Shown in pieces: positions 5,161-40,313 of a DNA stretch of 64,000 nucleotides. The translations under genes were made by a program, and so were the position numbers. How positions within the stretch are numbered: position 1 is the first letter of the stretch; the number at the start of each line of letters is the position of its first letter. This DNA is from Acidimicrobiales bacterium (GTDB lineage Bacteria; Actinomycetota; Acidimicrobiia; Acidimicrobiales; Aldehydirespiratoraceae), in the NCBI GenBank assembly GCA_965207755.1, contig OZ242297.1, positions 199,406-263,405 of the forward strand, given 5' to 3'. The notes below the pieces were generated by a model. The model saw nothing but the letters and a program-made list of their open reading frames with translations. It was not told where the DNA came from and ran no database searches.

Positions 5161-5219
5161 GCGCCACCTCCGTGGGTCGTCGCCCCGCTGAGGCCACCCG
5201 GTTTGGACAGCCCTTCAGT

Positions 5220-5238: not shown

Positions 5239-5265
5239 CAACCGAGGCAGGAGGGTCAACACCGG

Positions 5266-5949: not shown

Positions 5950-6017
5950 CGGCGTCGACGGCTGACTCCGCTGACCACTGAGCACAACCAACACACAACA
6001 CACCCCAGGGGGAGACA

Positions 6018-7709: not shown

Positions 7710-7820
7710 ACGACGGGTCATGTGCCGCGGGTAGAACCCGCCAGATGAGCCGCATGAGTAGAGGCCGAGCGGGTAGGCGGCACCAATGCAAGAGACCTGC
7801 GAGGCGCTGAGCGAGGCCGT

Positions 7821-7859
7821 GGCCCGAGCGGCCCGTGAGCGCAGCGAACAAGAGCGGGA
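7821..7859 (+). repeat. Repeat family 2 (GAGCGGCCCGTGAGCGCAGCGAACAnGAGCGGG), single copy
   Basis: Same 33-38-mer as at 56851-57027 (x4), 59801-59836 and 63028-63066 (inverted). Confidence 0.8.
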
Positions 7860-7920
7860 GACACCACGCCGGACCGCGAGGCACTATTCCCGCTCGCGCT
7901 CGCATGAGTAGCCTCGGCTA

Positions 7921-9851: not shown

Positions 9852-9955
9852 TGGCCGCGATTCCTGCCGCTGGCGCGATGATCTCGGCGGTCGCCAGCGA
9901 TGGCTGGAGGCTCGATGGTCTCGGCGGTCGCCGGCGATGGCTGGAGGCGCGATGA
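9851..9955 (+). other. 34-codon junction mini-ORF built from a 37-bp x3 repeat of the ATPase start region
   Basis: Its ATG shares one base with the permease TGA (TGATG). Its TGA overlaps the ATG at 9952 (ATGA). ATGATCTCGGCGGTCGCC, ATGGTCTCGGCGGTCGCC and ATGACCTCGGCGGCT sit at 9878, 9915 and 9952. Confidence 0.55.
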
Positions 9956-10989: not shown

Positions 10990-11077
10990 CCCGATCCGCT
11001 CGTTCTGTGTGTACAAACCCGGTCTATGCCCGGGAAAGCGCGAACAGATCCGGCAGATCCGCAGGGGGCGGCGCGCT

Positions 11078-12133
11078 ATGACCCCGCTGCTGGAAGTCTC
11101 CGACGTCCGGATCTCGTACCGGCCCCGCCGCGGGCTGGTGTCCAGACTGGTCCGGGCCCTGCGGTCCGACACCACCGAGCCGGTGCCGGCGGTGCGGGAC
11201 GCGTCGTTCACCATCAACACGGGCGAGACGGTGGCCCTGGTGGGCGAGAGCGGCAGCGGCAAGACCACCCTGGCCCGCTCCATCGCCGGGCTGATCCAGC
11301 CCCAGCGGGGGAGCCTGCGCTTCGAGGGCGCCGACATCACCCGGCCCGTGTACCGCCGGCCGCCGGAGCTGCTGCGCCACATCCAGTACGTGTTCCAGAA
11401 CCCGGCTTCGTCGCTGAACCCCCGCCGCAAGGTCCGCTACAGCCTGGGCCGCACGCTCGACGTGTTCTTCAAGCTGTCCAAGGCCGAGAGGCGCGACCGG
11501 ATGGCCGGGCTGCTGGCCAGCGTCCACCTCGACCCCGGCTACATCGACCGCTACCCGCCCCAGCTCAGCGGGGGCGAGGCCCAGCGGGTGGCCATCGCCC
11601 AGGCCCTGGCCGCCGAGCCCAAGCTGATCCTGTGCGACGAGGTCCTGTCGGCCCTCGACGTGTCGGTGCAGGACAACATCCTCGAGCTGCTGCGGGAGCT
11701 GCAGGCCGCCCGGGACGTGGCCTACCTGTTCATCGCCCACGACCTGGCCGTGGTGCGGTGGCTGGCAGACCGGGTGGTGGTGCTGTACCACGGCCGCATC
11801 GTCGAGCAGGGCACCGTCGAGGAGATCTTCACCCCGCCCCACCATCCCTACACCGCGCTTCTGCTCGACTCGATCCCCGGCAAGGGCGAGCACCAGACCT
11901 CCGCGCTGACCGAGGACGCCTCCACGGTAGGCACCGCCCCCGATGCCGGCTGCGCCTTCGAGCCCCGCTGCCAGCACCGGATCGCCGGGGTGTGCGAGGT
12001 CGAAGAACCGCCCCGCCTCCAAGACAGCCCGACCCACGACGTGCTCTGCCACCTGAGCGCCGACGACCGAGCCCGAGTACAGGTCCGTTCCGCCGCCGCT
12101 GTCGTGGCCGGCGCGCCGTCCGAGGAGATCTGA
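11078..12133 (+). CDS. ABC transporter ATP-binding protein (DppF/OppF-like)
   Basis: Walker A GESGSGKTT, signature LSGGEAQR, Walker B LILCDE. Start is taken at MTPLLEVSDV. Confidence 0.9.
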   Translation: MTPLLEVSDVRISYRPRRGLVSRLVRALRSDTTEPVPAVRDASFTINTGETVALVGESGSGKTTLARSIAGLIQPQRGSLRFEGADITRPVYRRPPELLRHIQYVFQNPASSLNPRRKVRYSLGRTLDVFFKLSKAERRDRMAGLLASVHLDPGYIDRYPPQLSGGEAQRVAIAQALAAEPKLILCDEVLSALDVSVQDNILELLRELQAARDVAYLFIAHDLAVVRWLADRVVVLYHGRIVEQGTVEEIFTPPHHPYTALLLDSIPGKGEHQTSALTEDASTVGTAPDAGCAFEPRCQHRIAGVCEVEEPPRLQDSPTHDVLCHLSADDRARVQVRSAAAVVAGAPSEEI

Positions 12134-12261
12134 TGGCCGACACCGCGGAATCCCAAGCCGTCCGAGGAAATCTGATGGCCGACACCGCGGAATCCCAAGC
12201 CGTCCGAGGAGATCGGATGACTTGCGCCGTGGAGTTCCAGCCGCCTAAGGAGACGAGATGA
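12133..12261 (+). other. 42-codon junction mini-ORF (42-bp x2 repeat) linking the ATPase stop to the DapA-family start
   Basis: TGATG overlap at 12131-12135 and ATGA overlap at 12258-12261. The repeat unit MADTAESQAVRGNL mimics the downstream N-terminus MTDTAQL. Confidence 0.55.
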
Positions 12262-13214
12262 CCGACACCGCCCAACTCCGTGACCGCCTCCAGGGCTGCT
12301 ATGTGACCGTGCCCACCCTGTTCCGGGACGACGACGAGCTGTCGGTCGACCTCGATGCCATGCGCAAGCACGTGGGCTTCCTGGTCGACGGCGGGATCAC
12401 CACCGGCAACGGGGTGCTGCTGGCCTGCGGCGCGGCCGGGGACTTCTCCACCATGACCTTCGACGAGCGGGTGGCGGTGACCGCCGCGGTGGTGGAGGAG
12501 GCCGCCGGCCGGGTGCCGGTGGTGATGGGCGGCCAGACCACCAGCACCATGGAGCTGGCGCGCCTGGCCCGGGCCGCGGCCGACATCGGCGCCGAGTACA
12601 TGCAGGTGTCGCCGCCATTCTACTTCGCCCACACCGACGACGACTTCATGGAGCACGTGGCCGCCGCCGCGGCCGCCTCGGATGTGGGCATGGTGGTCTA
12701 CAACACCCACTGGACCAGCCTGGAGATCTCCAACGCCCTCATCGACCGCCTGGCCGGCCTGGGCACGGTGGTGGGCCTGAAGTGGTCGATGCCCGACAAC
12801 GGGTTCATGGAGTTCGAGGGTGTGGTGGCCGACTACTCCGACCGGTTCTGCATCATCGACAACCAGCTGCGGTTCCCGACCAGCCACATGCTCGGAGCGA
12901 AGGGCATCGAGGTCCACATCTGCAACTTCTGGCCCCAGTGGGGGGTGCGGATGTGGGAGATGCTGAACAAGGGCCGCTACGTCGAGGCCCAGCATGAGCT
13001 GGTGCAGGTGGTGCTGCCGTTCATGCGGCTGTGGACCGAGATGGAGGGCTACACCAGCGGCGACGGCCATCTCGACAAACTGTGCATGGAGCTGGTGGGC
13101 CTGCCGTCGAGCCGCAGCCGTCCCCCCACCCGCGACATCCGCGACCGCTACCGGGAGCAGGCCCGGGAGATGCTCCAGGCCATAGGCACCCCCAACGTCC
13201 TAACCGCCGACTGA
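12258..13214 (+). CDS. Dihydrodipicolinate synthase (DapA) family class I aldolase/lyase
   Basis: 318 aa with the family pattern (GVLLACGAAGDFSTMTFDER, Schiff-base Lys context VVGLKWS). Confidence 0.85.
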   Translation: MTDTAQLRDRLQGCYVTVPTLFRDDDELSVDLDAMRKHVGFLVDGGITTGNGVLLACGAAGDFSTMTFDERVAVTAAVVEEAAGRVPVVMGGQTTSTMELARLARAAADIGAEYMQVSPPFYFAHTDDDFMEHVAAAAAASDVGMVVYNTHWTSLEISNALIDRLAGLGTVVGLKWSMPDNGFMEFEGVVADYSDRFCIIDNQLRFPTSHMLGAKGIEVHICNFWPQWGVRMWEMLNKGRYVEAQHELVQVVLPFMRLWTEMEGYTSGDGHLDKLCMELVGLPSSRSRPPTRDIRDRYREQAREMLQAIGTPNVLTAD

Positions 13215-13248
13215 CCGTCACCCAGCCCGCCCGCGCCCCCCGGCAACA

Positions 13249-13366
13249 TCTCGGGTTGGTTTTGGGTCGTAGGTACTCACAAATCGCCCCAAGATCTCGC
13301 GGCCAACCCGTCCCCAAGATCTCGGGTTGGTTTTGGGTCGTGGGTACCCACAAATCGCCCCAAGAT
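13249..13366. repeat. Hairpin repeat family 1, 2 tandem copies, period 71
   Basis: TCTCGGGTTGGTTTTGGGTCGT..AATCGCCCCAAGA at 13249-13295 and 13320-13366, between convergent genes. Confidence 0.85.
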
Positions 13367-13392
13367 CTTGCGGCTGGTTCGGTCAGCCGCCG

Positions 13393-14220
13393 TCAGCAGG
13401 GCAGCGGCACCACATGGTGGCGGCCGGTGTAGTCACGGCCCCGCAGCAGCCCCATCTGGCGGGGCTCGTCGGGGGCGTGGCGGGCCCGGTCGAGGCCGGC
13501 GTAGAGCGGGTTGCCGGTCACCCGCACGAACGGCACCGTCACCCGAGGCGACAACCCGATCCGCGGCTGGGACGTGCGGTTGGGACCCGACCCGTGCAGC
13601 GCGTTCTCGCTGAACATCACGAACTCCCCCGGCTCCAGTTCGAAGACCCGGATGTCGTCGGGATCGATGGCATCGGTCGGCACGGCCTGGTGGAACGAGT
13701 GACGGGTGCCGTCCACGTCGTGGTCGAAGGTGCTGGTGTGCGAACCCCTCACCACCTGGAGGCACCCGTTGTCGACGGTGGCCTCGGTGATGGCGATCCA
13801 GGCCGACGCCCAGACCGGGGGCAGCAGATCGAAGTAGGCCCCGTCCTGGTGCCACGGCACCTCGGTGTAGCGCTGCTCGTCACCGGTGGCCTCGGCCAGG
13901 GGCTGCTTGATCTGGAAGTTGCTGCGCCAGATCAGCAGGTCGGGCCCCAGCAGCGAAGCGACACGGTCCACCAACTCCGGTCCCCGGCACAGCCGGCACA
14001 CCGTCTCATGGTCCAGATGCCGGTCGTGGTAGTCCACGTGGGGGTCATCCAGTAGCGCTCCGGGAACGACGATCTCTTCCACGATCCGTTCCCGCATCGC
14101 GGCCATGACCTCCGGCGACACCAACCGGTAAGGCCCAATCACCCCATCGGAGTGATAAGCCTCCACCTCCGCCGCACCCAAAGGAAACCGCAACTCCGCC
14201 TCCAGCGCGACAACCCCCAC
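13393..14220 (-). CDS. Phytanoyl-CoA dioxygenase (PhyH) family Fe(II)/2OG oxygenase
   Basis: 275 aa with WHQDGAYF (HxD) and distal NALHGSGPNRT. Confidence 0.85.
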   Translation of the reverse strand: MGVVALEAELRFPLGAAEVEAYHSDGVIGPYRLVSPEVMAAMRERIVEEIVVPGALLDDPHVDYHDRHLDHETVCRLCRGPELVDRVASLLGPDLLIWRSNFQIKQPLAEATGDEQRYTEVPWHQDGAYFDLLPPVWASAWIAITEATVDNGCLQVVRGSHTSTFDHDVDGTRHSFHQAVPTDAIDPDDIRVFELEPGEFVMFSENALHGSGPNRTSQPRIGLSPRVTVPFVRVTGNPLYAGLDRARHAPDEPRQMGLLRGRDYTGRHHVVPLPC

Positions 14221-26693: not shown

Positions 26694-27641
26694 CTAGCTC
26701 GCGATGCGGTGGGTTGGCTCGCAGAACTTCGCCACCGTGGCGCACAGTTGGTTCGGGTGATCCACATAGTCGCTCCATGTGAACGTGAGCACCGTCCAAC
26801 CGTTCGCAGCCAGCGAGTTCCGGCGCCGCGGGTCGCGCTCGAATGCCTCGCTGTTCAAGTGCCAGCGCTTGCTGTCGAGTTCGATGGCCAGCCGTCGAGT
26901 CGGGTAGGCAAGGTCCACCTGGGCAAGGAACTGGCCGGTGGGGTCGCGGATCTGGTGCTCCAGCACTGGACGGTCCAGCCCGGACTCCACCAGCAGGTCA
27001 GCCACCATGCGGCTCCAGGCGCTGAGCGGCACCCGAATGTCGCCGCAACGCTCATCCAGCGCCTCGCGGAAGGCGACGCATCCGGTTCGCCCCTGACGGG
27101 AGTGCGACACCAGCACGGCGTACAGGTCTGAAGGCCGGAGTAGTCCGTCCCGGAGGACGGCATCGAGGGTCCGGGTCAGCTGCTTGCGGTTGACCACGGT
27201 CGCAAGGTCCAGGACTGTGCGACCGATCCCAGTGCAGAGAATGCCTTGCCGGTCCATCGGCTTGGCCAGATGCATCTGAGTCGTGCGGTGCAACCGCGCG
27301 CCCTTGAGGACCGGCTTCCGTTGCCATGGCACGGTCAGCTCGACTCGATCGAGCTTGTAGCCGTCCAGGTCATGGAGTGCGGCCGCAGAGCGATGGCTGG
27401 CAAGCCCATTGCACGCCAGGCAGCCGGCGAGCAGACGCGAGTGCGGGGTCTCCCGAAAGACGACATGGCGGTAGACGCCACGATTGGCACGCAGCCAGAT
27501 GCCTGCCGCCAAGCGTCGCTTGATCTGCGTATCGGTCATGCCCTTTGCGAGCGCCTGCTGCCGGCTGATCAGCCCGTGCTGCTGCCTCATCTGCTCAAGG
27601 ACCGGCGTCTCCTCCCGCACAGGCGCAACATAACATGACAT
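26694..27641 (-). CDS. DUF559 (Vsr-like endonuclease fold) protein with an AbiEi_4-like N-terminal HTH
   Basis: HGLISRQQALAKGMTDTQIKRRLAAGIWLRANRGVYRH at the N-terminus; C-terminal ELDSKRWH..RRRNSLAANGWTVLTFTW is DUF559-like. The likelier start is ATG at 27590. Confidence 0.7.
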   Translation of the reverse strand: MSCYVAPVREETPVLEQMRQQHGLISRQQALAKGMTDTQIKRRLAAGIWLRANRGVYRHVVFRETPHSRLLAGCLACNGLASHRSAAALHDLDGYKLDRVELTVPWQRKPVLKGARLHRTTQMHLAKPMDRQGILCTGIGRTVLDLATVVNRKQLTRTLDAVLRDGLLRPSDLYAVLVSHSRQGRTGCVAFREALDERCGDIRVPLSAWSRMVADLLVESGLDRPVLEHQIRDPTGQFLAQVDLAYPTRRLAIELDSKRWHLNSEAFERDPRRRNSLAANGWTVLTFTWSDYVDHPNQLCATVAKFCEPTHRIAS

Positions 27642-27771: not shown

Positions 27772-28749
27772 TCAGGAAGTACCGAACGTGACGCCCAGAT
27801 CCTTGAGCCAGCGGCGGTAGGCGACCGCCGTCCTGTCTCCTCGCACGTGCCACTCGGCCGCCAGGTCCAGCGGCAGCAGCTCGGGCCGCTGTGACTCCAC
27901 GATGGGGATGTCCTGCATGACGATCTCGTCGATGTAGGCCCCGAAGTCCTCGTCGGACAGGTCGCGGTTGTAGTTCATCGAGTTCCACATCCAGCCGACG
28001 CTGTTCCGCTCGTCGACCGGGGTGACCGCGAAGTACATGGTGTAGCGCTCGGGGCCTCCGCCGGGGATCGACAGCTCGATGTAGGCGGTGAGGGGCCGCA
28101 GCACCCGGTACAGCCACTGGGCCATCTTGGCTTCGCCCGAACCGTCGGGGTTGGGGGTCCAGGTGTGGATGTCGCGGGCGGTGATGCCGTCGGGGGTGGT
28201 CTCGACGTTGTAGTCGCCGACTTCGGCGTGGTCGCGGTCGCCGAGGATGCCCTCGTGGACGAACGGGAAGTGGGTGGCGTCCAGGAAGTTCTCGATGACT
28301 CGGGGCGCGCCGGCCCGTATGGGGTACGGGCCGCCGAGGACGTGACGGAAGGCGGGGTCGTCCCACTCGTCGTAGGGGGGCGGTGGCCGGTCGGGGCGGC
28401 CGAGCGAGACCCAGATCAGGCCGTGGGCCTCGGTGGCCGTGTAGGTGGTGGCGCAGGCCCGGGCCGGGGGCTTCTGCTGCGGGCGGGACGGGATGTGGAC
28501 GCAGGTGCCGGACTGGTCGTAGGTCCAGCCGTGGTATGCGCACTCCAGGCCGAGCCCGGTGACCTGGCCGAGCGAGAGGCGGGTGCCCCGATGCACGCAC
28601 AGGTCCTTCCACGCCATGACCTCGGTGCCCTGGCGCCACACGACCAGGTCCTCGCCCAGCAGTCGGGCGCCGGCCACGCCCGACTGCGGCACGTCGTCGC
28701 TGCGGGCCACCACGTGCCAGTCGTCCACCAGCACCGGGTCGTCGATCAT
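27772..28749 (-). CDS. Rieske [2Fe-2S] non-heme iron oxygenase, VanA/NdmA-type alpha subunit
   Basis: Rieske ligands CVHRG..x17..CAYHGW. Catalytic motif NFLDATHFPFVHEG. 325 aa. Confidence 0.85.
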   Translation of the reverse strand: MIDDPVLVDDWHVVARSDDVPQSGVAGARLLGEDLVVWRQGTEVMAWKDLCVHRGTRLSLGQVTGLGLECAYHGWTYDQSGTCVHIPSRPQQKPPARACATTYTATEAHGLIWVSLGRPDRPPPPYDEWDDPAFRHVLGGPYPIRAGAPRVIENFLDATHFPFVHEGILGDRDHAEVGDYNVETTPDGITARDIHTWTPNPDGSGEAKMAQWLYRVLRPLTAYIELSIPGGGPERYTMYFAVTPVDERNSVGWMWNSMNYNRDLSDEDFGAYIDEIVMQDIPIVESQRPELLPLDLAAEWHVRGDRTAVAYRRWLKDLGVTFGTS

Positions 28750-28768
28750 GGCCGGCCCGCTCGTTGGC

Positions 28769-29683
28769 TCACACGGCGGCGGGGATCACGCCGTAGGTGA
28801 CGCCGAGGTCGGAGAGCCACCGGCGGTAGGCGATGGCCGACCGGTCGGCCCTGATGGGGGTCTCGGCCCGGGGGTCGAGGGGCAGGCGCTTGGGGTGCTG
28901 GTTCTCGAGGATGGGCTTGTCCTGGGCGAAGATCAGCAGCTGGTAGCCCTTGATGTCGGTGTTGGTGCTGGCGTCGTCGATGACGCCCATGTAGTTGTGG
29001 GCCCGCACCACCTCCGCGCTCATGGGCTGCACCCAGATGGCGCAGATGTCCTCGAGGGAGGGGTCGGGGAGGCTGTCGTAGTAGAGCATCACGCAGTAGG
29101 GGTGCGGGACCCGGTACCGGTAGCGCATGACGACCGGCTCGTCGAAGTTGGCGCCCACCTTCGGCACCATCATGTCGCACTTGGTGGCGTGGACCTCGCC
29201 GTCGCGGACCTCGACGTCGTACTCGACCACCTCGGTGTGGGGCTGCACGCCCAGCGAGCCCTCGTGCACGTAGGGGAAGTGGGCCAGGTCCAGGAAGTTC
29301 TCGACCGCCCGGGGCGCCGAGGTGGCCACCCCGACGCTGCCGGCGTTCATGTTGCGCCGGCGGGGGTGGTGGTACTCCGGCAGCGGGAACAGGTCGTCGG
29401 GCGGGTCGCCGAGGCTGGTCCAGAGGTAGCCGTACTCGGGTTTGACCGGCAGGGCGTCGGCCCCGTTCAGCGGCGCGGACCCGTCGATCTCGGCGCCGGC
29501 AGGCAGGCGGATCGACGACCGCCAGACGCGGTGCTCGCCGGCGGGGGTGGCGGTGAAGCTGATCCGCTCGTCGAGCAGCAGCGTCTCGCTCACCACGCCC
29601 GCCGGGACTTCGTCGAGGGCGCTGATCACGTGCCACTGGTTCCAGATCACCGGATCGGTGCAGGCCGGCTGTGTGATCTCCAC
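28769..29683 (-). CDS. Oxygenase catalytic-domain paralog lacking Rieske cluster ligands (NdmC-like)
   Basis: Clear paralog of 27772-28749 (NFLDLAHFPYVHEG; C-terminal AIAYRRWLSDLGVTYG), but the N-terminal ~100 aa has no CxH/CxxH. GTG at 29683 follows GGCAGGAA. Confidence 0.75.
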   Translation of the reverse strand: MEITQPACTDPVIWNQWHVISALDEVPAGVVSETLLLDERISFTATPAGEHRVWRSSIRLPAGAEIDGSAPLNGADALPVKPEYGYLWTSLGDPPDDLFPLPEYHHPRRRNMNAGSVGVATSAPRAVENFLDLAHFPYVHEGSLGVQPHTEVVEYDVEVRDGEVHATKCDMMVPKVGANFDEPVVMRYRYRVPHPYCVMLYYDSLPDPSLEDICAIWVQPMSAEVVRAHNYMGVIDDASTNTDIKGYQLLIFAQDKPILENQHPKRLPLDPRAETPIRADRSAIAYRRWLSDLGVTYGVIPAAV

Positions 29684-29699
29684 TGTGTCGTTCCTGCCT

Positions 29700-29718
29700 T
29701 GATAAATGCCGCTTATCA
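29700..29718. promoter_or_regulatory. Candidate operator TGATAA-N7-TTATCA
   Basis: TGATAAATGCCGCTTATCA lies 17 nt upstream of the 29683 start. Identical half-sites and spacing occur at 34686-34704. Confidence 0.55.
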
Positions 29719-29776
29719 GTCTGGCATCCGATGGGGGCGGGCGCAATCGCCCGTCCCACGGCGATGGTGCAGACCA

Positions 29777-30841
29777 CTAGCAGCGGGCGAGCGCGGGCGA
29801 CAGGGGCGCCACCAGTTTGGCCGCGCCGATGAGGGCGTGGAAGTAGAAGTGGGCCACCACTGCGCCTGTGACGGTGGCCGCGGTGTCGTGGCCCCGCTCG
29901 GTGGGCTCCAGGGGGCCGGTGTCGGCCAGCATCCGTGCCTTGAAGCCGGCGATGAACTCTGCGTCGGTGATCAGCAGGCAGACCTCCTGGTTGCAGCGGA
30001 AGCTGTGACGGCTGAAGTTCGACGAGCCGATGAGCAGCTTGTCGTCGTCGGCCAGCAGGAAGCGAGCGTGGAAGAAGTCCGGGTAGGTGCGCAGTTCCAC
30101 GCCGGCGCGGGCCAGGCGGCGCCAGATATAGGGCTCGGCCAGGCGCAGCCAGCGGTAGTTGTTCTGCTGGGCGGTGATGACGGTCTTGGCCGGGGCCCGG
30201 GCCTGGCCGAGCAGCTTGACGATCCCGACGTCGAGGGAATAGGGGGAGGCCAGCACGAGGCTGCGGGCCGCGCCGTTGATGATCTCGCTGAACGCGGGCT
30301 CGATCTCCCTGTTTGTCAGCACCGCAGTGTTCACGGAGCGGCGGTCGCCCCGTTCGGTGCGGGCGAAGTCGTCCGTGAGGGCGTCCACGATGGCGGGGTC
30401 TGTGGTGCGGATCATGAAGTCGCGCCAGGCGAAGTTGTGGTCGCTGATGTTGATGCCGCCGAGGTAGGCGTGGTCGTCCACCACGTAGAGCTTCTTGTGG
30501 TTGCGGCTGAGGCCGAAGAACTTCACCGGTCCGAAGGGCTGGGTGAAGGTGACGGCCACGTCGGCGGACCTGAGCCGGGCGAACATGGCCTTGGTCTCTG
30601 CGGCCTCGTGGAGCACGGACGGGTCGGTGTCCTTGCGGTCGCTGACGTAGCGCAGGGCGAAGCAGTCGACCGCCAGCCTCACGTCCACGCCCCGGCCGGC
30701 GGCCCCGGCCAGCAGGTCGGCCACGGCCAGGCCCGAGGCGTCGCCGTCGAAGGTCATCACCTGTACAAGCACCCGCCGCTCGGCCGAGGCCAGGGCCCGG
30801 TGCAGGTCCTCGATGAACTCCTGATTCGTCAGCAGCTGCAA
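29777..30841 (-). CDS. Phospholipase D-like (HKD) domain protein
   Basis: First motif NHKKLYVVDD..GGINIS. Second motif HARFLLADDDKLLIGSSNFS (HxR instead of HxK). 354 aa. Confidence 0.75.
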   Translation of the reverse strand: MQLLTNQEFIEDLHRALASAERRVLVQVMTFDGDASGLAVADLLAGAAGRGVDVRLAVDCFALRYVSDRKDTDPSVLHEAAETKAMFARLRSADVAVTFTQPFGPVKFFGLSRNHKKLYVVDDHAYLGGINISDHNFAWRDFMIRTTDPAIVDALTDDFARTERGDRRSVNTAVLTNREIEPAFSEIINGAARSLVLASPYSLDVGIVKLLGQARAPAKTVITAQQNNYRWLRLAEPYIWRRLARAGVELRTYPDFFHARFLLADDDKLLIGSSNFSRHSFRCNQEVCLLITDAEFIAGFKARMLADTGPLEPTERGHDTAATVTGAVVAHFYFHALIGAAKLVAPLSPALARC

Positions 30842-30872
30842 CGGCCCACCGCCAGTCGCCCGCCGTGAGCCG

Positions 30873-31514
30873 CTAGCGCCCCGGCGAGGCGGGGAAGATC
30901 CCGGGCATCAACTCGAAGCCGGGGATCCGCTTCACCCGGTCGGTCCAGCGCCGCAACGCCGGGTAGTCGAGCCGGGAGATCCCGCCCTCCTCCGACAGCA
31001 CCACGTCGGGGAACAGGGCGATGTCGGCGATGGTGGGATGGTCGCCCGAGCACACCCACGACCGGCCCCCGCGCTCACGGAACCACAGATGCTCGTCCAG
31101 CACTCGGAAGAGACGGTGGGCGCCGGCCTGGCACGCCTCGAGGTCGAAGTCGTAGCCGAGGTTGACGCACAGCCGGGCCGCCGACGCGGTGTTGGTGGTG
31201 CCCTCCGCGAACAGCATCCACGAGGCGGTCTCGCCCAGCAGCCCGGGATCGCCGGTCGGGTACCAGCGTCCGCTCGGGTCGTGCTTGGCCGCCAGGTACA
31301 CCAGGATGGCGTGGGCGTCCCACAGGATGTAGCCGTCGTCGTCGATGACCGGGATGTGGCCCAGCGGGTTGATCTTGCGGAACTCCTCGCCCTTGTGCTC
31401 CCACCCCGGGAAGAAGTCCACGGGGACCGGCTCGTACTCGACGCCGAGGATGCTCATCATCAGCCGCTGCTTGTAGCAGTTGACCGACAGCACGTAGTCG
31501 TACAGCTTGATCAT
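30873..31514 (-). CDS. Glutathione S-transferase family protein (NdmE-like by context)
   Basis: 213 aa with a GST N-terminal thioredoxin-like fold (INPLGHIPVIDDDG) and a C-terminal helical domain. Confidence 0.8.
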   Translation of the reverse strand: MIKLYDYVLSVNCYKQRLMMSILGVEYEPVPVDFFPGWEHKGEEFRKINPLGHIPVIDDDGYILWDAHAILVYLAAKHDPSGRWYPTGDPGLLGETASWMLFAEGTTNTASAARLCVNLGYDFDLEACQAGAHRLFRVLDEHLWFRERGGRSWVCSGDHPTIADIALFPDVVLSEEGGISRLDYPALRRWTDRVKRIPGFELMPGIFPASPGR

Positions 31515-31530
31515 CGCTTGCCGCCCAGCC

Positions 31531-33387
31531 TCACAGGTCGAGCACGAGCCGGTCGGACAGGGCCCGGGACACGCAGGTCATGATCCGGTCGCCGGCCTCG
31601 TGGTCGGAGTCGTTGAGGTACACGTCCTGGTGGTCGGGCTCGCCCTCTATCACGGTCGCCACACACGTGCCGCACGCCCCCTGCTCGCACGACGACGGCA
31701 GGGGCACCCCGTTCTCCCGCAGCACCTCGAGGATCGTCCGGCCCGACCCGACGGTGACGGTCAGCGCCGAGCGGGCCAGGGCCACCTCGAACGTCGACGA
31801 GTCGTGGATCTCGTTGGCGTTCTTGAAGTACTCGAAGTGGACGTGATCGTCGGGCCAGCCGGCCGCGGCCGCCTCCCGCCGGGCAGCCTCCAGCATCGGT
31901 CCGGGACCGCACACGTACAGGTGGGTGAACTCGTCGTGGGCAGCCACCAGCCGCCGGATCTCCGCGACCGTCTCGTCGGGCGGGAGCCCGAGATGGCGCA
32001 CGACGGATGAGCCCAGCCCGTCGAGCACGTCGCTGAACGCGGTGTGCGCCGCTGACTGGGCGAAGCAGTGCAGCTCGAAGGGAAGCGACATGCGGTCGAG
32101 GGCCTGGGCCATGGCCAGCAGCGGGGTGATGCCGATGCCGCCGGCCAGCAGGATCGTCCGCATCGAGTCGCGCCGCAGCGGGAAGTTGTTGCGGGGCTCG
32201 GAGACGGCCAGCACGTCGCCCTCCCGCACCGCCTCGTGCAGGCAGACCGACCCTCCGGTCGAGTCGGGCTCGAGCTTGACCCCGAGGCGGTAGTACGACG
32301 TCTCGCCGGGGCCGTTGGTGATGGAGTACTGGCGCACCAGCCCGTTGGGCAGATGGACGTCGATGTGGGCGCCCGGCTGGAACGTGGGCAGCACCCCGCT
32401 GAGCGGGGCGAGCTCGAAGGCGGCCACCCCGGTCGCGGTCTCCCACTTGCGGCGCACCTGCACCCGCAGCGCGGCCTGGCGGCCGGACGGAGCTTCCGGC
32501 ATTTCCGCCAGGTGCAGCGGAACCTGCTGCAGCACGGGCACCATCGGCTCGGGGGCCGGCAGCAGGGCGGCCTCGGCCTCGATCCTGGCCACCAGCCCGC
32601 TCAACCCGGTCGCGTGGTGCCGCAGCACGGCCGTCTGCTCGCCCGCCGGAGGCGTCTCCGCCAGCACAGCCCTGATCACGCTGCGCCCCGAGTCGACCGG
32701 CTGCACGAAGAACACCGCGGTCGATGACGCCCCCGACGCCGAGCCCGGCGCCCCCGCCCCCGACGCCGAGCCCGACGAGCCCGCCGAGCCTGACGCCGAT
32801 GACGACGAACGGTCGGCGCCGTCGGTGGCGGTGAGCGCCACCGAATAGTCGTCGGGCCACTCCACCGTCATCTCCGCCGACTCGGCGCCGAGGCTCCCCG
32901 AAGGCAGGAACCGGTGAGTCTGCAGGTGCTGAAGCACCAGCTCGACCGACGCGTCGACCGGCAGGTTGCGCAGCCCGAACGGCGTGCCCGCCTCCAACAC
33001 GTCCACCGTCGGCGGCTCGCCCACCGGATCCTCGCCCGACCACACCAGCCCGTAGCGCTCCACCGACGGGAACGTGCGGTTGCAGATGGTCCGGGCCGGG
33101 GCGTCGGCCGGATGGGCGGGGATGTAGGTGCATCCCGCCGACCGGTTGGCGTAGCGCCATCCGTGGTACTGGCAGCGCAGCTCGGTGCCGTCGTTGCTGC
33201 CGATCGACAGCCGCACTCCCCGGTGCAGGCACCGGTTCTCCCACACGTTGACGTAGCCGTCGTCGGCCCGCCACACCGCCAGCTCCCGGCCCAGAAGCTG
33301 GGCGTGGCACACGTGGCGGTAGGGCACGTCGTGAGCCGACGCCACCGGATGCCACATCGTGAACGGATCGGCTGTCACCAGGGTCAT
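31531..33387 (-). CDS. Rieske domain fused to a phthalate-dioxygenase-reductase-type reductase (flavin/NAD/plant-type [2Fe-2S]); NdmD-like
   Basis: N-terminus CLHRG..CQYHGW. Ser/Gly/Ala linker. RQYSITN flavin motif, LLAGGIGITP NAD motif and C-terminal CEQGACGTCV ferredoxin motif. 618 aa. Confidence 0.85.
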   Translation of the reverse strand: MTLVTADPFTMWHPVASAHDVPYRHVCHAQLLGRELAVWRADDGYVNVWENRCLHRGVRLSIGSNDGTELRCQYHGWRYANRSAGCTYIPAHPADAPARTICNRTFPSVERYGLVWSGEDPVGEPPTVDVLEAGTPFGLRNLPVDASVELVLQHLQTHRFLPSGSLGAESAEMTVEWPDDYSVALTATDGADRSSSSASGSAGSSGSASGAGAPGSASGASSTAVFFVQPVDSGRSVIRAVLAETPPAGEQTAVLRHHATGLSGLVARIEAEAALLPAPEPMVPVLQQVPLHLAEMPEAPSGRQAALRVQVRRKWETATGVAAFELAPLSGVLPTFQPGAHIDVHLPNGLVRQYSITNGPGETSYYRLGVKLEPDSTGGSVCLHEAVREGDVLAVSEPRNNFPLRRDSMRTILLAGGIGITPLLAMAQALDRMSLPFELHCFAQSAAHTAFSDVLDGLGSSVVRHLGLPPDETVAEIRRLVAAHDEFTHLYVCGPGPMLEAARREAAAAGWPDDHVHFEYFKNANEIHDSSTFEVALARSALTVTVGSGRTILEVLRENGVPLPSSCEQGACGTCVATVIEGEPDHQDVYLNDSDHEAGDRIMTCVSRALSDRLVLDL

Positions 33388-34643
33388 GCTGTCTCCCTAC
33401 CGAGATCGATGAACGGATACTCGCACACTTCCGCGGCTGCCTCACCCAGGGGGCGTCCCCAGAAGTCGGCCCACTCGACGGCGAGGACGGTCCCCGGCGC
33501 GGACAGCTCCGCCGGCACCAGCCCGAAGCCGATCAGCTGCGACGTCGTGGGGCTCCAGGTGACGCTGCTGGCCCGGCCCACCGCGTCGTTGCCCGCTCGC
33601 AACGGCAGATGGTCCCATCGCACCCTGGGCGACACGTCGGGGGACAGGCCGGCGTCCATGAACAGCCTGACTACGCGCTCCACATCGAACGTCAGGCCCA
33701 CGACACGCCTGGACGGCCCCCGGCGGTTCTCGGCGGCCAGAGCCTCCCGCCCCATGAAGTCGGCGGCCTTGTCCAGCTTCACGCAGTGCCCGAGACCCAG
33801 CTCGTAGGGCGTCACGAAGTCGGCCGGGTTGGGGGCGGTGTCGGCGCTGGGGGCGTCGGGCCCGGCGCCGGTGTAGTCGGCCGAGATCAGGATCAGGCCG
33901 GCCTCCACCCGGGCGATGTCGATGGCGTACTCGCCCGCCGGCTGGATCCCGAACGGCGCCCCGGCCGAGGCCACCGCCTCCCACACCCGCTCACCACCGG
34001 ACCGCTCGACCCACAGCTCGAAGCCCAGCTCGCCGGTGAACCCCTGCCGGGCCACGGTCACGCCCACGCCGTCGATCTCCGCCGCCCGGAATCGCGAGAA
34101 CCGGAGATCACTCCAGCTCTCGCCGGTCACGGCCTCCAAGACCTCACGCGACCGCGGCCCCTGCACCGCCAGGATCCCGTGGTCGTCGGTCACGGCCGCG
34201 ACCTCGACATCGAAACCGACGGTCTCCTTCCTCAAGAACGTCTCGCACCGGTCGCCCGAGAACACGAACCTCTCCGGCTCGAAGCGGAACACGATGCCGT
34301 CGGCCACCACCTTGCCGTCGTGGGTGCACCACGGCGTGTACCAGGCGTGCCCGACGTCCATCCGGGAGGCGTCCCGGGTGATCAGGTAGTCCACGCAGGC
34401 GGCTGCCTCGACCCCCTGCACCTCGATCTTCGGTATCGGCGACATCTCGTTCATGGACACCCCGCCCCGGATGGCCCGCAACTCCGAGACCGGGTCGGAG
34501 TACACGTCGGGCACCACGTAGCCGCCCCAGCCGAACCACCAGGTGGACGCCATCCGCGCCACGGTCCCCCGGTGGAACGGCGTCCCACGGAGGGCGCCGG
34601 CGGGCGCCGCGTGCCCTTCCAGTCCCGTCATCGGCTCGCCCAT
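33384..34643 (-). CDS. Aminomethyltransferase (GcvT) family folate-binding protein
   Basis: 419 aa with a GCV_T/GCV_T_C pattern (FTGELGFELW). Its stop overlaps the downstream start (ATGA). Confidence 0.85.
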   Translation of the reverse strand: MGEPMTGLEGHAAPAGALRGTPFHRGTVARMASTWWFGWGGYVVPDVYSDPVSELRAIRGGVSMNEMSPIPKIEVQGVEAAACVDYLITRDASRMDVGHAWYTPWCTHDGKVVADGIVFRFEPERFVFSGDRCETFLRKETVGFDVEVAAVTDDHGILAVQGPRSREVLEAVTGESWSDLRFSRFRAAEIDGVGVTVARQGFTGELGFELWVERSGGERVWEAVASAGAPFGIQPAGEYAIDIARVEAGLILISADYTGAGPDAPSADTAPNPADFVTPYELGLGHCVKLDKAADFMGREALAAENRRGPSRRVVGLTFDVERVVRLFMDAGLSPDVSPRVRWDHLPLRAGNDAVGRASSVTWSPTTSQLIGFGLVPAELSAPGTVLAVEWADFWGRPLGEAAAEVCEYPFIDLGRETA

Positions 34644-34685
34644 CGGTACCGCCTGCCCATTTGGCTTGAAACAGCCCTTACGGGA

Positions 34686-34704
34686 TGATAAGAACCAGTT
34701 ATCA
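34686..34704. promoter_or_regulatory. Candidate operator TGATAA-N7-TTATCA in the divergent gcvT-like/BMP-SBP promoter region
   Basis: TGATAAGAACCAGTTATCA lies 43 nt upstream of the gcvT-like start and 31 nt upstream of the SBP ATG. Confidence 0.55.
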
Positions 34705-34734
34705 CCCTGTCAAAACACCTGGGGAGGGAACGAC

Positions 34735-35982
34735 ATGAGACAGGCCCGATGGCTGATGGCACTTCTAGCCGTGTTCGCGTTGGTGGCCGCGGCGTGCGGG
34801 GACGACGACGACGCTGCCCCGGCCGAACCGGCAGCGCCGGCGGAAGCACCCGCGGAAGCCCCGGCCGAGGAAGCCGCGCCCGCCGAGGAGCCTGCCGAAG
34901 AGGCGCCGGCCGAGGAAGCCGCGCCTGCCGAAGGGGCGCCGATGGAGGAAGAGGAGCCCGCCGAAGAGGCCGCGCCGTCCGACGGCACCGGCTACTCGGT
35001 GGCCTTCGTGTTCGACGGGTTCCTGGACGACGGCGGATGGAACACCACCCACCACCGTGGCGTGCAGCAGGTACAGGCAGCGCTGCCGGGCCTCGACGTC
35101 CAGTTGGTGACCGAGATATCTCCCGGCCCGAGCGCGACCAACGCCTTCGAGGACCTCGCCGAGGCGGGCGTGGACATGGTGATCGCCACCGGCTTCTACC
35201 AGCCCGACGCCGAGCCGGTCGCGGCCGCCTATCCCGACACCATCTTCCTGACCTGGGCCGGATGGACGACCACCGACAACATGGGCCACTTCGACGGGGC
35301 CACCGAGGACGGCCGCTACCTCGACGGTCTGATCGCGGGGAGCGTCACCGAGAGCGGCATCATCGGCTATCCCGCCGGGTTCCCCATCGAGGAGGTCAAC
35401 CGGGCCCTCAACGCCTTCACCATCGGCGTGCGCGAGATGAACCCCGACGCGGTGGTGCAGGTCGTGTACATCAACAGCTGGTACGACCCGCCCGCCGAGC
35501 AGCAGGCCGCGGAAGCGCTGGCCAACGCCGGCGCCGACGTGCTGGCCCACGAGCTGAACTCCCCGGCGGTGGCGTCGGTGGCCGAGAGCCGGGGCCTCAA
35601 CATCATCGGCTACTCCTCGGACCGTTCGGCTGAGGCGCCCAACGCCTGGCTGTCGTCGTTCACCTTCGAGTGGGGCGGCTACTACACCGACCAGATCAAG
35701 TCCATGATGGACGGCACCTGGGCGCCGGCCCTCAGCTACGGCGGGCTGGCCGACGGCTTCATCGGCAACGCGCCGTACGGCCCCGACGTCAGCGACGAGA
35801 TGCTGGCCCTGGTCGAGGAGCGTCGCCAGCAGATCATCGACGGGACGTTCGACTACTTCGCCGGACCGCTGATGGACAACGAGGGCAACGTCCAGGTGCC
35901 CGACGGCGGCACCATCCCCTTCGGGGAGCGGACACTCTGCTGCCTGTGGCTCATCGAGGGCATCGAGGGCTCGATCAACTGA
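34735..35982 (+). CDS. BMP family (PnrA/Med-like) ABC transporter substrate-binding lipoprotein
   Basis: MRQARWLMALLAVFALVAAC lipobox, Pro/Ala/Glu linker, then a Bmp-type body. RBS GGGGAGGGAA. Confidence 0.85.
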   Translation: MRQARWLMALLAVFALVAAACGDDDDAAPAEPAAPAEAPAEAPAEEAAPAEEPAEEAPAEEAAPAEGAPMEEEEPAEEAAPSDGTGYSVAFVFDGFLDDGGWNTTHHRGVQQVQAALPGLDVQLVTEISPGPSATNAFEDLAEAGVDMVIATGFYQPDAEPVAAAYPDTIFLTWAGWTTTDNMGHFDGATEDGRYLDGLIAGSVTESGIIGYPAGFPIEEVNRALNAFTIGVREMNPDAVVQVVYINSWYDPPAEQQAAEALANAGADVLAHELNSPAVASVAESRGLNIIGYSSDRSAEAPNAWLSSFTFEWGGYYTDQIKSMMDGTWAPALSYGGLADGFIGNAPYGPDVSDEMLALVEERRQQIIDGTFDYFAGPLMDNEGNVQVPDGGTIPFGERTLCCLWLIEGIEGSIN

Positions 35983-36051: not shown

Positions 36052-37607
<1,556 letters not shown>

Positions 37608-37611
<4 letters not shown>

Positions 37612-38699
37612 CCCTGCGCGTCTCCGTCGAGCCGCGGGCCAGGCCGGCGCTGCCGGTTCGGCTCGGCGTCCCGGTCGCGTCGCTGGCCGCGGCCGGCTTG
37701 GCCGGAGCCGTCGTGATCCTGATCGCGGGCGCCAGCCCCTTCGAGGCCTACCGCACCATGCTGGACGCCAGCCTGAACGGCTTGCGGCCCCTGACCCGCA
37801 CCCTGGTGCTGGCCACGCCGCTGATCCTCACCGGCCTGGCCGCTGCGGTCGCCTTCCGCATGAAGGTGTGGAACATCGGGGCCGAGGGCCAGCTCTACAT
37901 GGGGGCCATCGCGGCCGCCGGGCTGGCTCTGGCCCTGCCGCCGGGCACTCCGAAGCCGCTGATGCTGCTGGTGATCCTGGCGGCCGGCGCGGTGGCGGGG
38001 GCGCTGTGGGCCGGGCTGGCCGCGCTGCCCAAGGCCTACTTCAACACCAACGAGGTGATCACCACCCTGATGCTCAACTTCGTGGCCCTGTACTTCATGA
38101 ACTATCTGATCTTCGGTTCGGTCAGCTTCTGGCGCGACCCCGAGGCCATGTTCCCGCAGGGCAAGCTCATCGGTGACGCGGCCCAACTCCCGATCATCTC
38201 GCACCGGCTCCACTACGGGCTGCTGGTGGCACTGGCGGCTGCGCTGGTGCTGTGGTGGAGCCTGCGGGGCACCACCTGGGGGTTCGAGCTGCGCACCATC
38301 GGCGACTCCCCGGCCGCCTCCCGCTACGCGGGGATGAGCGTGAGCGGCAAGATCCTGTCGGTGCTGGCCCTGTCGGGGGCGCTGGCCGGCGTGGCCGGAG
38401 CCATCGAGGTCAGCGGCGTGCTCAAGACCCTCGACCCCCGGGCCATCGCCACCGAGCTCGGGTTCACCGGCATCGTGGTGGCCGCCGTCGCCCGGCTCAA
38501 CCCCCTCGGCGTGGTGCCGGTGGCCGTGCTGCTCGGCGCGGTGGTGGCGTCGGGGACCAGCCTGCAGACCGTCGGCCTCGAGGCCGAGATCGTGTTCCTG
38601 CTCCAGGGCCTGATCTTCCTGTTCGTGGCGGCCGGCGAATTCTTCCTGGCCAACCGTCTCGTGCTCCCCAGGACGGCGGCCGCGGTGGGTTCGCCATGA
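37608..38699 (+). CDS. ABC transporter permease (BPD_transp_2 type)
   Basis: ATGA overlap with the ATPase stop. Multi-TM, 363 aa. Confidence 0.85.
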
Positions 38700-38782
38700 A
38701 CGACGCTGTTCTGGACGGCGGCCGCGGTGGGTTCGCCATGAACGACGCTGTTCTGGACGGCGCGGCGGTGGGTTCGCCATGA
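38696..38782 (+). other. 28-codon junction mini-ORF made by triplication (42 + 41 bp) of the permease-permease ATGA junction
   Basis: GGTGGGTTCGCCATGAACGAC occurs 3 times, with ATGs at 38696, 38738 and 38779. ATGA overlaps at both ends. Confidence 0.6.
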
Positions 38783-39726
38783 ACGACACCGTCCTGGTCC
38801 TGTCGATCGTCAGCGCCATCGTGGCCGGCACGCCGATCCTGTTCGCCACTCTCGGCGAGGTCCTGACCGAGCGCTCCGGGGTCATGAACCTGGGCGTGGA
38901 GGGGATGATGCTCATCGGGGGCGTCACCGGCTTCTGGGCCGGGGTCCAGACCGGCAACCTCTGGCTGGCGCTGCTGGCCGGCGGGCTGGCCGGAGCGGTG
39001 CTCAGCGGGATCCATGCCCTGCTGGCCATCTCGCTGCGGGTGAACCAGATCGTCTCGGGCCTCGCCCTCGTGATCGTCGGAGGGGGGCTCTCCGCCTTCT
39101 GGGGCAGCAGCGGCGACACCCCGCTGATCCAGAGCTTCAACGGCGTGCGGGTCGATCCGCTGCTGCCCGAAGCCCTGCGGGACCTGCCCGCGGTGGGTCC
39201 GATCCTGTTCGGCCACGACCCGGTGGTGTACCTGTCGTGGCTGATCGTGGCCGCAGCCGCCTACTTCCTGTACCGCACCAACGCCGGCCTGTCGCTGCGG
39301 GCGGTGGGGGAGGACCCGGCCGCGGCCGACGCCGCCGGCCTGTCGGTTGCCGGCATCCGCTACCTGTTCACCCTGGTGGGCGGCTTCGGCGCCGGGGTGG
39401 GCGGCGCCTACCTGGCGCTGGCCGTGCTGGGGACCTGGCAGACGGGCATGACCGCAGGGGCGGGCTGGATCGCGGTGGCGCTGGTGATCCTGGCCGGTTG
39501 GCGGCCCTGGCTGGCCCTGGCCGCCTCCTACGTGTTCGGCGCGCTGCGCACGTTGGGGTTCACGCTGCAGATCGCCGGAGTCGAGGTCCCGTCCGACTTC
39601 CTGAACATGATCCCGTTCGTGGTGACGTTCCTGGTGGTGATCGTGGTGTCGGCCAACCCGGAGCGGGCCCGCCGGGTGGGCGCGCCGGCCAGCCTCGGCG
39701 AGCCCTATGCGAGGGAGGCGCGATGA
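38779..39726 (+). CDS. ABC transporter permease (BPD_transp_2 type)
   Basis: 315 aa, multi-TM, second permease of the BMP-type system. Confidence 0.85.
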   Translation: MNDTVLVLSIVSAIVAGTPILFATLGEVLTERSGVMNLGVEGMMLIGGVTGFWAGVQTGNLWLALLAGGLAGAVLSGIHALLAISLRVNQIVSGLALVIVGGGLSAFWGSSGDTPLIQSFNGVRVDPLLPEALRDLPAVGPILFGHDPVVYLSWLIVAAAAYFLYRTNAGLSLRAVGEDPAAADAAGLSVAGIRYLFTLVGGFGAGVGGAYLALAVLGTWQTGMTAGAGWIAVALVILAGWRPWLALAASYVFGALRTLGFTLQIAGVEVPSDFLNMIPFVVTFLVVIVVSANPERARRVGAPASLGEPYAREAR

Positions 39727-40313
39727 GCGAGGCCAATGAGAGCGGCCCGGGGAGGGATGAGCTGGGCCTCCAGATCGGGGCCAAGGTCAAGGCGCTGCGA
39801 GCCGAGCGGGGCCTGTCGGGCCGCAAGCTGGCCGCGGCCGCCGACGTCAGCCAGCCGTTCCTCAGCCAGCTCGAGGCCGGGAGGACGTCGGTGGCCATAG
39901 CCACGCTGTACCGCTTGGCGTCCGCCCTCGACATCAAGCCGTCGGACCTGCTGCCCGACCCGCCGACCGACACCGAGGTCGAGGTCCTGCGGGCCGCGGA
40001 GCTGGATCAGATGCCGGTGAGCGAACTGCCCAACGCCACCACCGCCCGGACCGCCTACCGGGGCGGCCGGCGGATCACCGAGCTGGGCGACTTCCGGATC
40101 GAGCCCGGCCCCGACGTCGACGAGTGGTTCGAATCCTCCGACGAGACCGTGATCTACGTGATAGAGGGATCGCTGCACGTGGACTTCGAGGACCGCCCCC
40201 GAGTGACCCTCCACGCCGGCGACGTCATGTTCCACTCGGCGTGGGTCCGGACCCGCTGGCGCCTGGCGTCGGGGTCGCCCGCCCGGGTGGTCCTCGTAGC
40301 GGCCGGAGGCTGA
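39723..40313 (+). CDS. XRE-family HTH transcriptional regulator with C-terminal cupin domain
   Basis: LGLQIGAKVKALRAERGLSGRKLAAAADVSQPFLSQLEAG HTH, plus a cupin region (IYVIEGSLHVDF..HAGDVMFH). ATGA overlap with the permease. Confidence 0.85.
   Translation: MSEANESGPGRDELGLQIGAKVKALRAERGLSGRKLAAAADVSQPFLSQLEAGRTSVAIATLYRLASALDIKPSDLLPDPPTDTEVEVLRAAELDQMPVSELPNATTARTAYRGGRRITELGDFRIEPGPDVDEWFESSDETVIYVIEGSLHVDFEDRPRVTLHAGDVMFHSAWVRTRWRLASGSPARVVLVAAGG

Follow-up and report, generated by a model that had tools for sequence, protein, structure and literature searches.

We analyzed a 64,000-nucleotide stretch of the Acidimicrobiales contig OZ242297.1 (here called the window; G+C content of about 70%), in which a string of six minus-strand genes was compared with the ndmCDE genes of Pseudomonas putida. 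From low to high coordinates, the string encodes an intact Rieske oxygenase, an oxygenase-like protein without a Rieske cluster, a PLD-like protein, a protein related to glutathione S-transferases (GST), a Rieske-reductase fusion, and a GcvT-like folate protein. A BMP-type ABC importer and a regulator gene follow on the plus strand. The third-codon-position G+C content (GC3) of all six minus-strand open reading frames (ORFs) was of the coding type, from 0.93 to 0.97, and their coordinates are those noted when the DNA was first read. A horizontal-transfer island was considered and rejected; the cluster bears no trace of recent acquisition, its GC3 matching the values found elsewhere in the window. 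An earlier note on this DNA had proposed that the string follows the division of labor among NdmC, NdmD, and NdmE. Pairwise alignments to the Ndm proteins, as well as the grouping of the Rieske-less protein with NdmC, bore this out. By every sequence-level criterion, the locus is a predicted NdmCDE-type split Rieske system. To our knowledge, NdmCDE is the only characterized Rieske oxygenase in which the Rieske domain has been moved onto the reductase and a GST-like scaffold is required, and we know of no solved structure of it. In the PDB, we found no NdmC sequence, no full-length NdmD sequence, and no NdmE sequence.

The Rieske-less protein was compared with NdmC of P. putida (P0128), the UniRef methylxanthine N7-demethylase M1EY73. 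This entry was reached by a protein search seeded with a Klebsiella plasmid homologue, whose cluster had been located by tblastn against plasmids. The two proteins were 39% identical over 294 amino acids (E value of 2e-71). The Rieske-less protein gave no Pfam Rieske match, has neither Cys nor His at the ligand positions, and shows no CxH...CxxH pattern in its translation; it keeps the iron-site motif ENFLDLAHFPYVHEG. The Rieske Cys/His ligands were absent in all 26 family members aligned, and N129, D132, H135, H140, and D255, among which Asp132 is the bridging residue, were invariant among 26 homologues; D132, H135, H140, and D255 were also invariant in a set of 15. The GTG start at position 29683 is backed by homologues of 303 to 304 amino acids. 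In a neighbor-joining tree of 50 sequences, a single Rieske-less split that included NdmC was recovered in 96 of 100 bootstraps, and the family as a whole had more than 2,700 database matches. An AlphaFold (AF2) model of the protein (pLDDT, 85.9; pTM, 0.87) superposed on SxtT/GxtA along the whole length, with a TM score of 0.83. Because of this full-length superposition, the N-terminal domain is predicted to be a vestigial Rieske fold. The Rieske-less oxygenase is thus related to NdmC by descent. The earlier description of this gene as a paralog that kept the iron motif and lost the Rieske ligands holds, but a recent, degenerate tandem duplication was rejected: the two window oxygenases share just 33% identity, against 39% to NdmC, and the tree also speaks against it. 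The identity of 33% marks the gene as an old member of the NdmC family rather than a decayed tandem copy.

For NdmD and NdmE, the comparators were taken from the Pseudomonas contig L011 (L numbers are our handles for homologous loci), which carries an NdmC (P0130) 87% identical to P0128 of strain CBB5. The ndm cluster of L011 reads ADH/frmA, ndmA, Tsx, GntR, ndmB, NCS2 permease, TIM-barrel protein, ndmC, ndmD, ndmE, and esterase/frmB. The reductase of the window was 36% identical to the NdmD orthologue from end to end (E value of 2e-128), including the extra N-terminal Rieske domain. The N terminus bears CLH...CQYH, and the Rieske motif WENRC.HRG...LRCQYHGW is near-identical to that of NdmD. 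Residues 305 to 618 matched phthalate dioxygenase reductase (PDB 2pia; 1.2e-57), and the Fer2 region matched the Fer2 domain of NdmD (6icm_D; 2.6e-19). The order of the parts is an N-terminal Rieske domain, a Ser/Gly-rich linker, an FMN/NAD(H) module, and a plant-type [2Fe-2S] domain, as first noted. The linker between the Rieske domain and the flavin module (residues ~190 to 225) is a Ser/Gly/Ala-rich low-complexity segment, and nothing comparable is present in NdmD.

The GST-like protein was 57% identical to the NdmE orthologue from end to end (E value of 6e-92), whereas the best solved GST matched with an E value of 5e-20. A signature, LYDYxLSxNCxKxRL...HPTxADxAxFP, was invariant together with many other positions from Proteobacteria (Pseudomonas) to Acidimicrobiia. 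These comparisons assign the protein to the NdmE family rather than to generic detoxification GSTs, and it is the best conserved of the three NdmCDE-type proteins. The invariant N-terminal motif of the family includes Ser10 and Cys13, so the NdmE-like GST may, to judge by its sequence, bind a thiol. In an Acidimicrobiia metagenome-assembled genome (MAG), an NdmE-like GST and an intact Rieske oxygenase are joined in a single ORF of 608 amino acids (L081:12804-14627). Provided that this fusion is not an artefact of assembly, it would support the view that the two proteins touch each other physically.

Next, the conservation of the gene set was examined in species-representative genomes, at least 589 of whose loci contain a member of the Rieske-less family. 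The best 80 loci were fetched and tabulated by phmmer. An NdmD-like reductase was present in 58 of the 80, with 8 more loci lying at contig ends, and an NdmE-like GST stood beside the NdmD-like gene in 60. The other genes were less frequent: a BMP binding protein was found in 39 loci, an intact oxygenase in 13, GcvT in 9, an adenine or adenosine deaminase in 8, and PLD in 7. The triad of Rieske-less oxygenase, Rieske-reductase, and GST, whose linkage the earlier note had set up for checking, recurs in 58 to 60 of the 80 loci and in several phyla; because of this recurrence, the arrangement is not due to chance. The closest relatives (85 to 93% identity) are Acidimicrobiia MAGs assigned to Candidatus Aldehydirespirator or to Acidimicrobiaceae "SB06xx" bins, and the Aldehydirespiratoraceae include sponge symbionts. 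One Ca. Aldehydirespirator chromosome (OZ242020.1) carries at least three separate NdmC-like loci (L021, L046, and L090), and a marine contig (L007) has three Rieske-less genes, a GcvT gene, and one intact oxygenase gene in a row.

The design was already known outside Pseudomonas, since, according to a review (PMC4408171), Summers et al. (2013) found ndmCDE-homologous clusters, with no function assigned, in 18 organisms, mostly Sinorhizobium and Mesorhizobium; the window holds a variant of it. In the rhizobia (Sinorhizobium pSymA and others), a GntR gene and a BMP ABC transporter are divergent from one or two Rieske-less genes, a Rieske-reductase, and a GST. The NdmC-like proteins of Sinorhizobium and Mesorhizobium are 55 to 57% identical to that of the window, and the triad and the divergent BMP ABC transporter are the same. 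Unlike in the window, the regulator of the rhizobial clusters is of the GntR type, Rieske-less paralogues are often two in number, and there is no intact partner oxygenase, GcvT, or PLD gene. With P. putida CBB5, the window shares the three-part design and the co-location of the genes, at the identities given above. The gene order, however, is GcvT-D-E-(PLD)-C in the window and C-D-E in Pseudomonas. Uptake would depend on a BMP ABC importer instead of an NCS2 permease and a Tsx channel, a GcvT-like folate protein is found where Pseudomonas has the glutathione-dependent frmA/frmB formaldehyde detoxification, and the regulator is of the XRE-cupin rather than the GntR type, in an Acidimicrobiia actinobacterium. 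The locus departs from the Pseudomonas prototype in five respects: it is coupled to folate, has an SxtT-clade partner, an ABC importer of the purine-base type, and a regulator and operator of its own, and belongs to another phylum. All features are listed in Table 1.

Table 1. Genes and sites of the NdmCDE-type locus and its importer (positions in the window)
Feature	Position	Strand	Description
Intact Rieske/VanA_C oxygenase, SxtT/GxtA/NdmA family	27772-28749	-	325 aa; Pfam Rieske 1.3e-21, VanA_C 1.6e-21
NdmC-like Rieske-less oxygenase subunit	28769-29683	-	304 aa; Pfam VanA_C only
Palindromic operator-like site TGATAAATGCCGCTTATCA	29700-29718		17 nt before the GTG start codon of the NdmC-like gene
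PLD/HKD-superfamily protein, ClsB-like	29777-30841	-	354 aa; two PLDc_2 domains, 7.5e-28
NdmE-family GST-like subunit	30873-31514	-	213 aa; Pfam GST_N + GST_C
NdmD-like reductase	31531-33387	-	618 aa; Pfam Rieske 3e-17, FNR-like module, Fer2 1.6e-15
GcvT-family folate-binding protein	33384-34643	-	419 aa; Pfam GCV_T 3.6e-54 + GCV_T_C
Sigma-70-like promoter of the GcvT-NdmD-GST unit	34685-34713	-	TTGACA, 17-nt spacer, TATCAT; 11/12 matches
Palindromic operator-like site TGATAAGAACCAGTTATCA	34686-34704		Within the 91-bp divergent GcvT/BMP intergenic region
BMP-family lipoprotein substrate-binding protein	34735-35982	+	Pfam Bmp 1.6e-48; lipobox LVAAAC after ATG 34735
ABC transporter ATPase, two ABC_tran domains	36052-37611	+	Pfam ABC_tran 2.1e-50
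ABC permease 1, BPD_transp_2	37608-38699	+	Pfam 1.2e-37
ABC permease 2, BPD_transp_2	38779-39726	+	Pfam 3.4e-35
XRE-type helix-turn-helix (HTH) + cupin regulator	39723-40313	+	196 aa; overlaps the permease 2 stop by 4 nt

The intact oxygenase was confirmed as such, with both Pfam domains and the Rieske ligands CVH...CAYH present in its translation. Its best PDB matches were SxtDIOX(GxtA)/SxtT (2.7e-76) and NdmA (1.8e-40). The identity was 41% to GxtA/SxtT and 30% to both NdmA and NdmB (for the NdmA orthologue, a pairwise E value of 2e-44). The protein has the same alpha-only Rieske/VanA_C architecture and the same ligands as NdmA, NdmB, SxtT, and GxtA; unlike them, it belongs to a clade of its own that is always paired with an NdmC-like gene. 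The earlier assignment to the VanA/Ndm type thus stands for the architecture but not for the nearest kin. In the tree, this partner-oxygenase clade had 99 of 100 bootstraps and was separated from the NdmA/B clade, toward SxtT/GxtA, where its sister position to the Sxt proteins had moderate support (67 of 100). We therefore rejected orthology to NdmA or NdmB. A location inside a saxitoxin-type biosynthetic cluster was also rejected, as the scan of 36 window ORFs with Pfam found no other gene of this kind; the identity to the Sxt proteins is just 41%. In every case (L006, L007, L015, and L021 to L023), a member of the clade directly follows a window-type NdmC-like gene; the two genes are 19 nt apart in the window and overlap by 4 nt in L007. 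Directly downstream of the intact oxygenase gene, and in the same place in L006, is a minus-strand gene (26694-27641) for a protein with an AbiEi-like HTH and a DUF559/MTES_1575 endonuclease-like part.

The binding protein of the importer was then considered for what it says about the substrate. As first noted, a BMP importer of the purine-type family adjoins the cluster; the best PDB matches of its lipoprotein were AtzT (6pi5; 1.6e-60) and a Brucella protein (3s99; 4.7e-55), which would place it in the purine-base-binding subgroup. AtzT was copurified with guanine (Kd of 110 nM) and binds adenine at 2.5 µM, and the adenine in 3s99 is modelled (PMC6834077). When the AtzT pocket was mapped on the BMP protein, six of nine positions were found to be kept or conservatively replaced. 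The kept positions comprise the aromatic sandwich (W102 for Tyr45, and W249), E220 for Glu165, F154 for Phe98, and N275 for Asn220. The aromatic sandwich, Glu220, Phe154, and Asn275 are conserved with AtzT and 3s99; the differences lie in the linker after the lipobox and in three pocket substitutions. This linker (residues ~25 to 85) is a long, acidic Pro/Ala/Glu repeat. The pocket is predicted to be purine shaped, yet not that of plain guanine or adenine.

Homologous clusters gave a similar indication. The divergent BMP transporter has the gene order of the rhizobial clusters. L006, whose NdmC-like protein is 92 to 93% identical to that of the window, also has genes for an adenine deaminase and a member of the adenosine deaminase family, together with two more intact oxygenases and a second NdmC-like protein, and NCS2 xanthine/uracil permeases lie within the Pseudomonas, Klebsiella, and Nocardioides clusters. 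In Pseudonocardia (L005:10912-12867), the NdmC-like gene is followed by a 651-amino-acid fusion of a Rieske domain with an OHCU decarboxylase-tautomerase, which replaces the NdmD-like reductase and the GST. Through this fusion, the NdmC-like family is tied to the catabolism of urate and the purine ring. The context suggests methylated purine bases as the substrate class. A literature search found no publication tying Rieske enzymes to natural methylpurines (methyladenine and 7-methylguanine), and a search for NdmC together with SxtT likewise found none.

We also examined the noncoding parts of the cluster. The palindrome TGATAA-N7-TTATCA has exactly two matches in the window, with none expected, and each copy precedes one of the two transcription units. 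The copy in the divergent intergenic region lies within a sigma-70-like promoter aimed at GcvT, the -10 hexamer and the spacer overlapping the palindrome, and this arrangement of TTGACA and palindrome is kept in relatives. Conservation of the two positions extends to 11 related loci. The site in front of the NdmC-like gene is kept in L006, L013 to L016, L018 to L020, and L080, and the one in front of GcvT in L006, L013 to L015, L018 to L021, L023, and L080. The XRE-cupin regulator of the window is 88% identical to an HTH_3/Cupin_2 regulator inside the L006 cluster, and its orthologues occur in L006, L013, L014, L016, L019, and L021, all six of which bear the palindrome. Judging from this co-occurrence alone, the palindromes are probably bound by this regulator.

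The GcvT stop and the reductase start overlap by 4 nt (33384-33387), as implied by the ORF coordinates and as first noted. The GcvT-like protein matched best the C-terminal tetrahydrofolate (THF) domain of trimethylamine N-oxide demethylase (Tdm; NCBIfam, 2.7e-58; PDB 9q59, 9e-44). Its scores were below every curated equivalog cutoff, including those of GcvT, Tdm, and DmdA. Although the protein belongs to the T-protein fold family, a glycine-cleavage T-protein in the strict sense was rejected, with 189 bits against a cutoff of 300 (PRK00389) and 132 against 235.85 (TIGR00528). It shares the GCV_T and GCV_T_C folds with the THF domain of Tdm and with T-protein GcvT, but unlike the Tdm domain, it stands alone and is translationally coupled to a Rieske reductase. 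The NdmD-like gene is directly preceded by a GcvT gene in L015, L018, L020, L080, and L093, and in L007, L022, and L023, GcvT lies among NdmC-like genes; in the window, it occupies the place of the second NdmC-like gene of L006 and L013. The linkage is essentially confined to Acidimicrobiia. The most economical reading would be the capture of formaldehyde as methylene-THF by the GcvT-like protein.

Taken together, we consider it probable that the locus serves the oxidative N-demethylation of an imported methylated purine or purine-like base. The substrate would be imported by the purine-type BMP lipoprotein and its ABC transporter, and the XRE-cupin regulator would then free the two promoters bearing the palindrome. 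The NdmD-like reductase would pass electrons from NAD(P)H via flavin to its plant-type [2Fe-2S] cluster. From there, one route would lead through the N-terminal Rieske domain of the reductase to the mononuclear iron of the NdmC-like oxygenase, the NdmE-like GST holding the complex together, and a second route would reach the intact SxtT/NdmA-family oxygenase at its own Rieske cluster. Each oxygenase would hydroxylate a methyl group, the hemiaminal would collapse into formaldehyde and the demethylated base, and the GcvT-like protein would trap the one-carbon (C1) unit on THF. The results above establish which genes and domains are present, which metal ligands are kept or lost, the orthology to NdmC, NdmD, and NdmE, the conserved synteny, the kinship of the binding protein to purine binders, and the conserved operator that occurs together with the regulator. 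In this scheme, we infer complex formation, the electron path, the chemistry, the identity of the substrate, the role of the GcvT-like protein, and the pairing of regulator and operator. The biochemical reference is the P. putida NdmCDE complex, the only characterized member of the family, which acts on 7-methylxanthine (PMC4408171).

Several observations weigh against the demethylation scheme. At 39% identity to NdmC, the NdmC-like protein may act on another substrate or even on another atom. Three of the nine AtzT pocket residues are changed in the BMP protein (S97G, N169A, and N218E), and no downstream gene of purine catabolism (xanthine dehydrogenase or a deaminase) turned up in the Pfam scan of 36 window ORFs, nor did deaminase queries find one by phmmer. 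The intact oxygenase is nearer to the C-H hydroxylases SxtT and GxtA than to NdmA/B. Finally, L007, L021, and L022 contain the pair of NdmC-like and intact oxygenases where neither NdmD nor a GST is encoded within 10 kb, so electron transfer through the NdmD Rieske domain is not the sole possibility.

The changed pocket and the failure to find purine-catabolic enzymes in the window scans would suit the same machinery working on a substrate other than a methylpurine, such as another N-heterocycle or methylated amine, a triazine-like compound, a pterin, or a cytokinin, the purine link of the transporter being ancestral. AtzT itself sets a precedent, as it also accepts the nonpurine 2-hydroxyatrazine (PMC6834077). 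We nevertheless regard such a substrate as unlikely. In four phyla or classes, homologous clusters stand beside purine genes (deaminases, NCS2 permeases, the OHCU fusion, and a xanthine-dehydrogenase-family gene), and the only characterized family member acts on a methylated purine.

To an equally small extent, we allow for a different electron path, in which the Rieske-less subunit forms a heteromer with the intact oxygenase and draws electrons from the Rieske cluster of this partner rather than from the reductase Rieske domain via the GST. The pair of genes is conserved, tightly spaced, and equipped with its own operator, and the bridging Asp132 is invariant. The persistence of the pair away from NdmD and GST, in L023 as well as in the three loci just named, makes a heteromer of the two oxygenases conceivable. 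Against it, the window and most relatives keep a complete NdmD-like Rieske domain and the NdmE-like GST, and most family members, in rhizobia and Devosia, have no intact oxygenase nearby.

The affinity of both oxygenases to SxtT and GxtA, their best solved relatives, raises the question of whether they are instead C-H hydroxylases that act like SxtT and GxtA in tailoring or detoxifying a guanidinium or purine-like alkaloid. The intact oxygenase groups with these proteins in the tree, and the closest genomes are from sponge-associated Acidimicrobiia. We judge this improbable, more so than either of the foregoing alternatives: the scanned ORFs include no other saxitoxin-type gene, the importer and the C1-capturing GcvT-like protein fit catabolism, and the orthologues of the NdmC-, NdmD-, and NdmE-like proteins make up a demethylase complex.

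GcvT-family demethylases exist (LigM, DesA, and DmdA), but it is very improbable that the GcvT-like protein is itself a THF-dependent demethylase of this kind, with the oxygenases performing ring hydroxylation, because its weak NCBIfam matches to DmdA (1.8e-40), DesA, and LigM are far below the curated cutoffs, T-protein and the formaldehyde-capturing domains of Tdm, DMGDH, and SoxA match better, and GcvT is missing from most clusters, with a second NdmC-like gene in its place in L006 and L013.

The demethylation scheme, if right, bears on how bacteria handle modified bases. The NdmCDE design, as the locus shows, is an ancient one that has been conserved across phyla. It is possible, though we put this forward tentatively, that the clusters of this family constitute a widespread bacterial salvage route for naturally methylated purines. 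Possible substrates would then be 7-methylguanine or 7-methylxanthine, methyladenines from RNA or DNA turnover, and the methylpurine alkaloids of sponges, and to this route the Acidimicrobiia would add folate C1 capture, a mixed Rieske-less/Rieske pair, and an XRE-cupin sensor with its operator. Pointers to the substrate are the purine-base-type importer in the window and the adenine/adenosine deaminases in sister genomes. The translationally coupled folate protein suggests a formaldehyde-free use of the methyl groups. The defined regulator, the two operators, and the binding protein offer handles for finding the ligand; should it be a methylated purine, a gap in the bacterial recycling of modified nucleobases would be filled.

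The PLD-like gene embedded in the string is present as first noted, but its functional coupling to the oxygenases is doubtful. The protein had no sequence match in the PDB and scored below all NCBIfam cardiolipin-synthase cutoffs (for ClsB, 66.5 bits against a cutoff of 281). The first of its HKD motifs is intact, and the second is H-x-R (FHARF) in the Aldehydirespirator clade, whereas homologues of at most 52% identity have H-x-K there. These homologues showed no linkage to an oxygenase cluster where the context was checked (L094 to L096), and those of 47 to 51% identity adjoin FxsA and SelA/SelB, with no oxygenase nearby. Linkage was seen only among homologues of at least 62% identity, within one bacterial family. 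In most relatives, the PLD gene is outside the operator-controlled unit, the conserved operator lying between the PLD and NdmC-like genes. The gene is probably a syntenic passenger, because its distant homologues are found among unrelated genes and it is located upstream of the operator. For the same reasons, a role such as cleaving a phosphodiester-linked purine is unsupported. The block of PLD, NdmC-like, and intact oxygenase genes is inverted relative to GcvT-NdmD-GST between close relatives, being colinear in the window, L006, and L013 and convergent in L015, L018, L020, L080, and L093. A second, unrelated PLD-fold protein in the window is polyphosphate kinase 1 (54744-56828, plus strand), whose C-terminal domains match PLDc_2.

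Elsewhere in the window, a separate cluster (4246-14220) comprises two PhyH-family dioxygenases, an SBP_bac_5 peptide/opine-type ABC transporter, and a DHDPS-family lyase. After it come an enolase-superfamily gene and a 2-hydroxyacid dehydrogenase gene (15.3 to 17.6 kb), and a BNR/sialidase-like gene is located at 17.8 to 19.0 kb.

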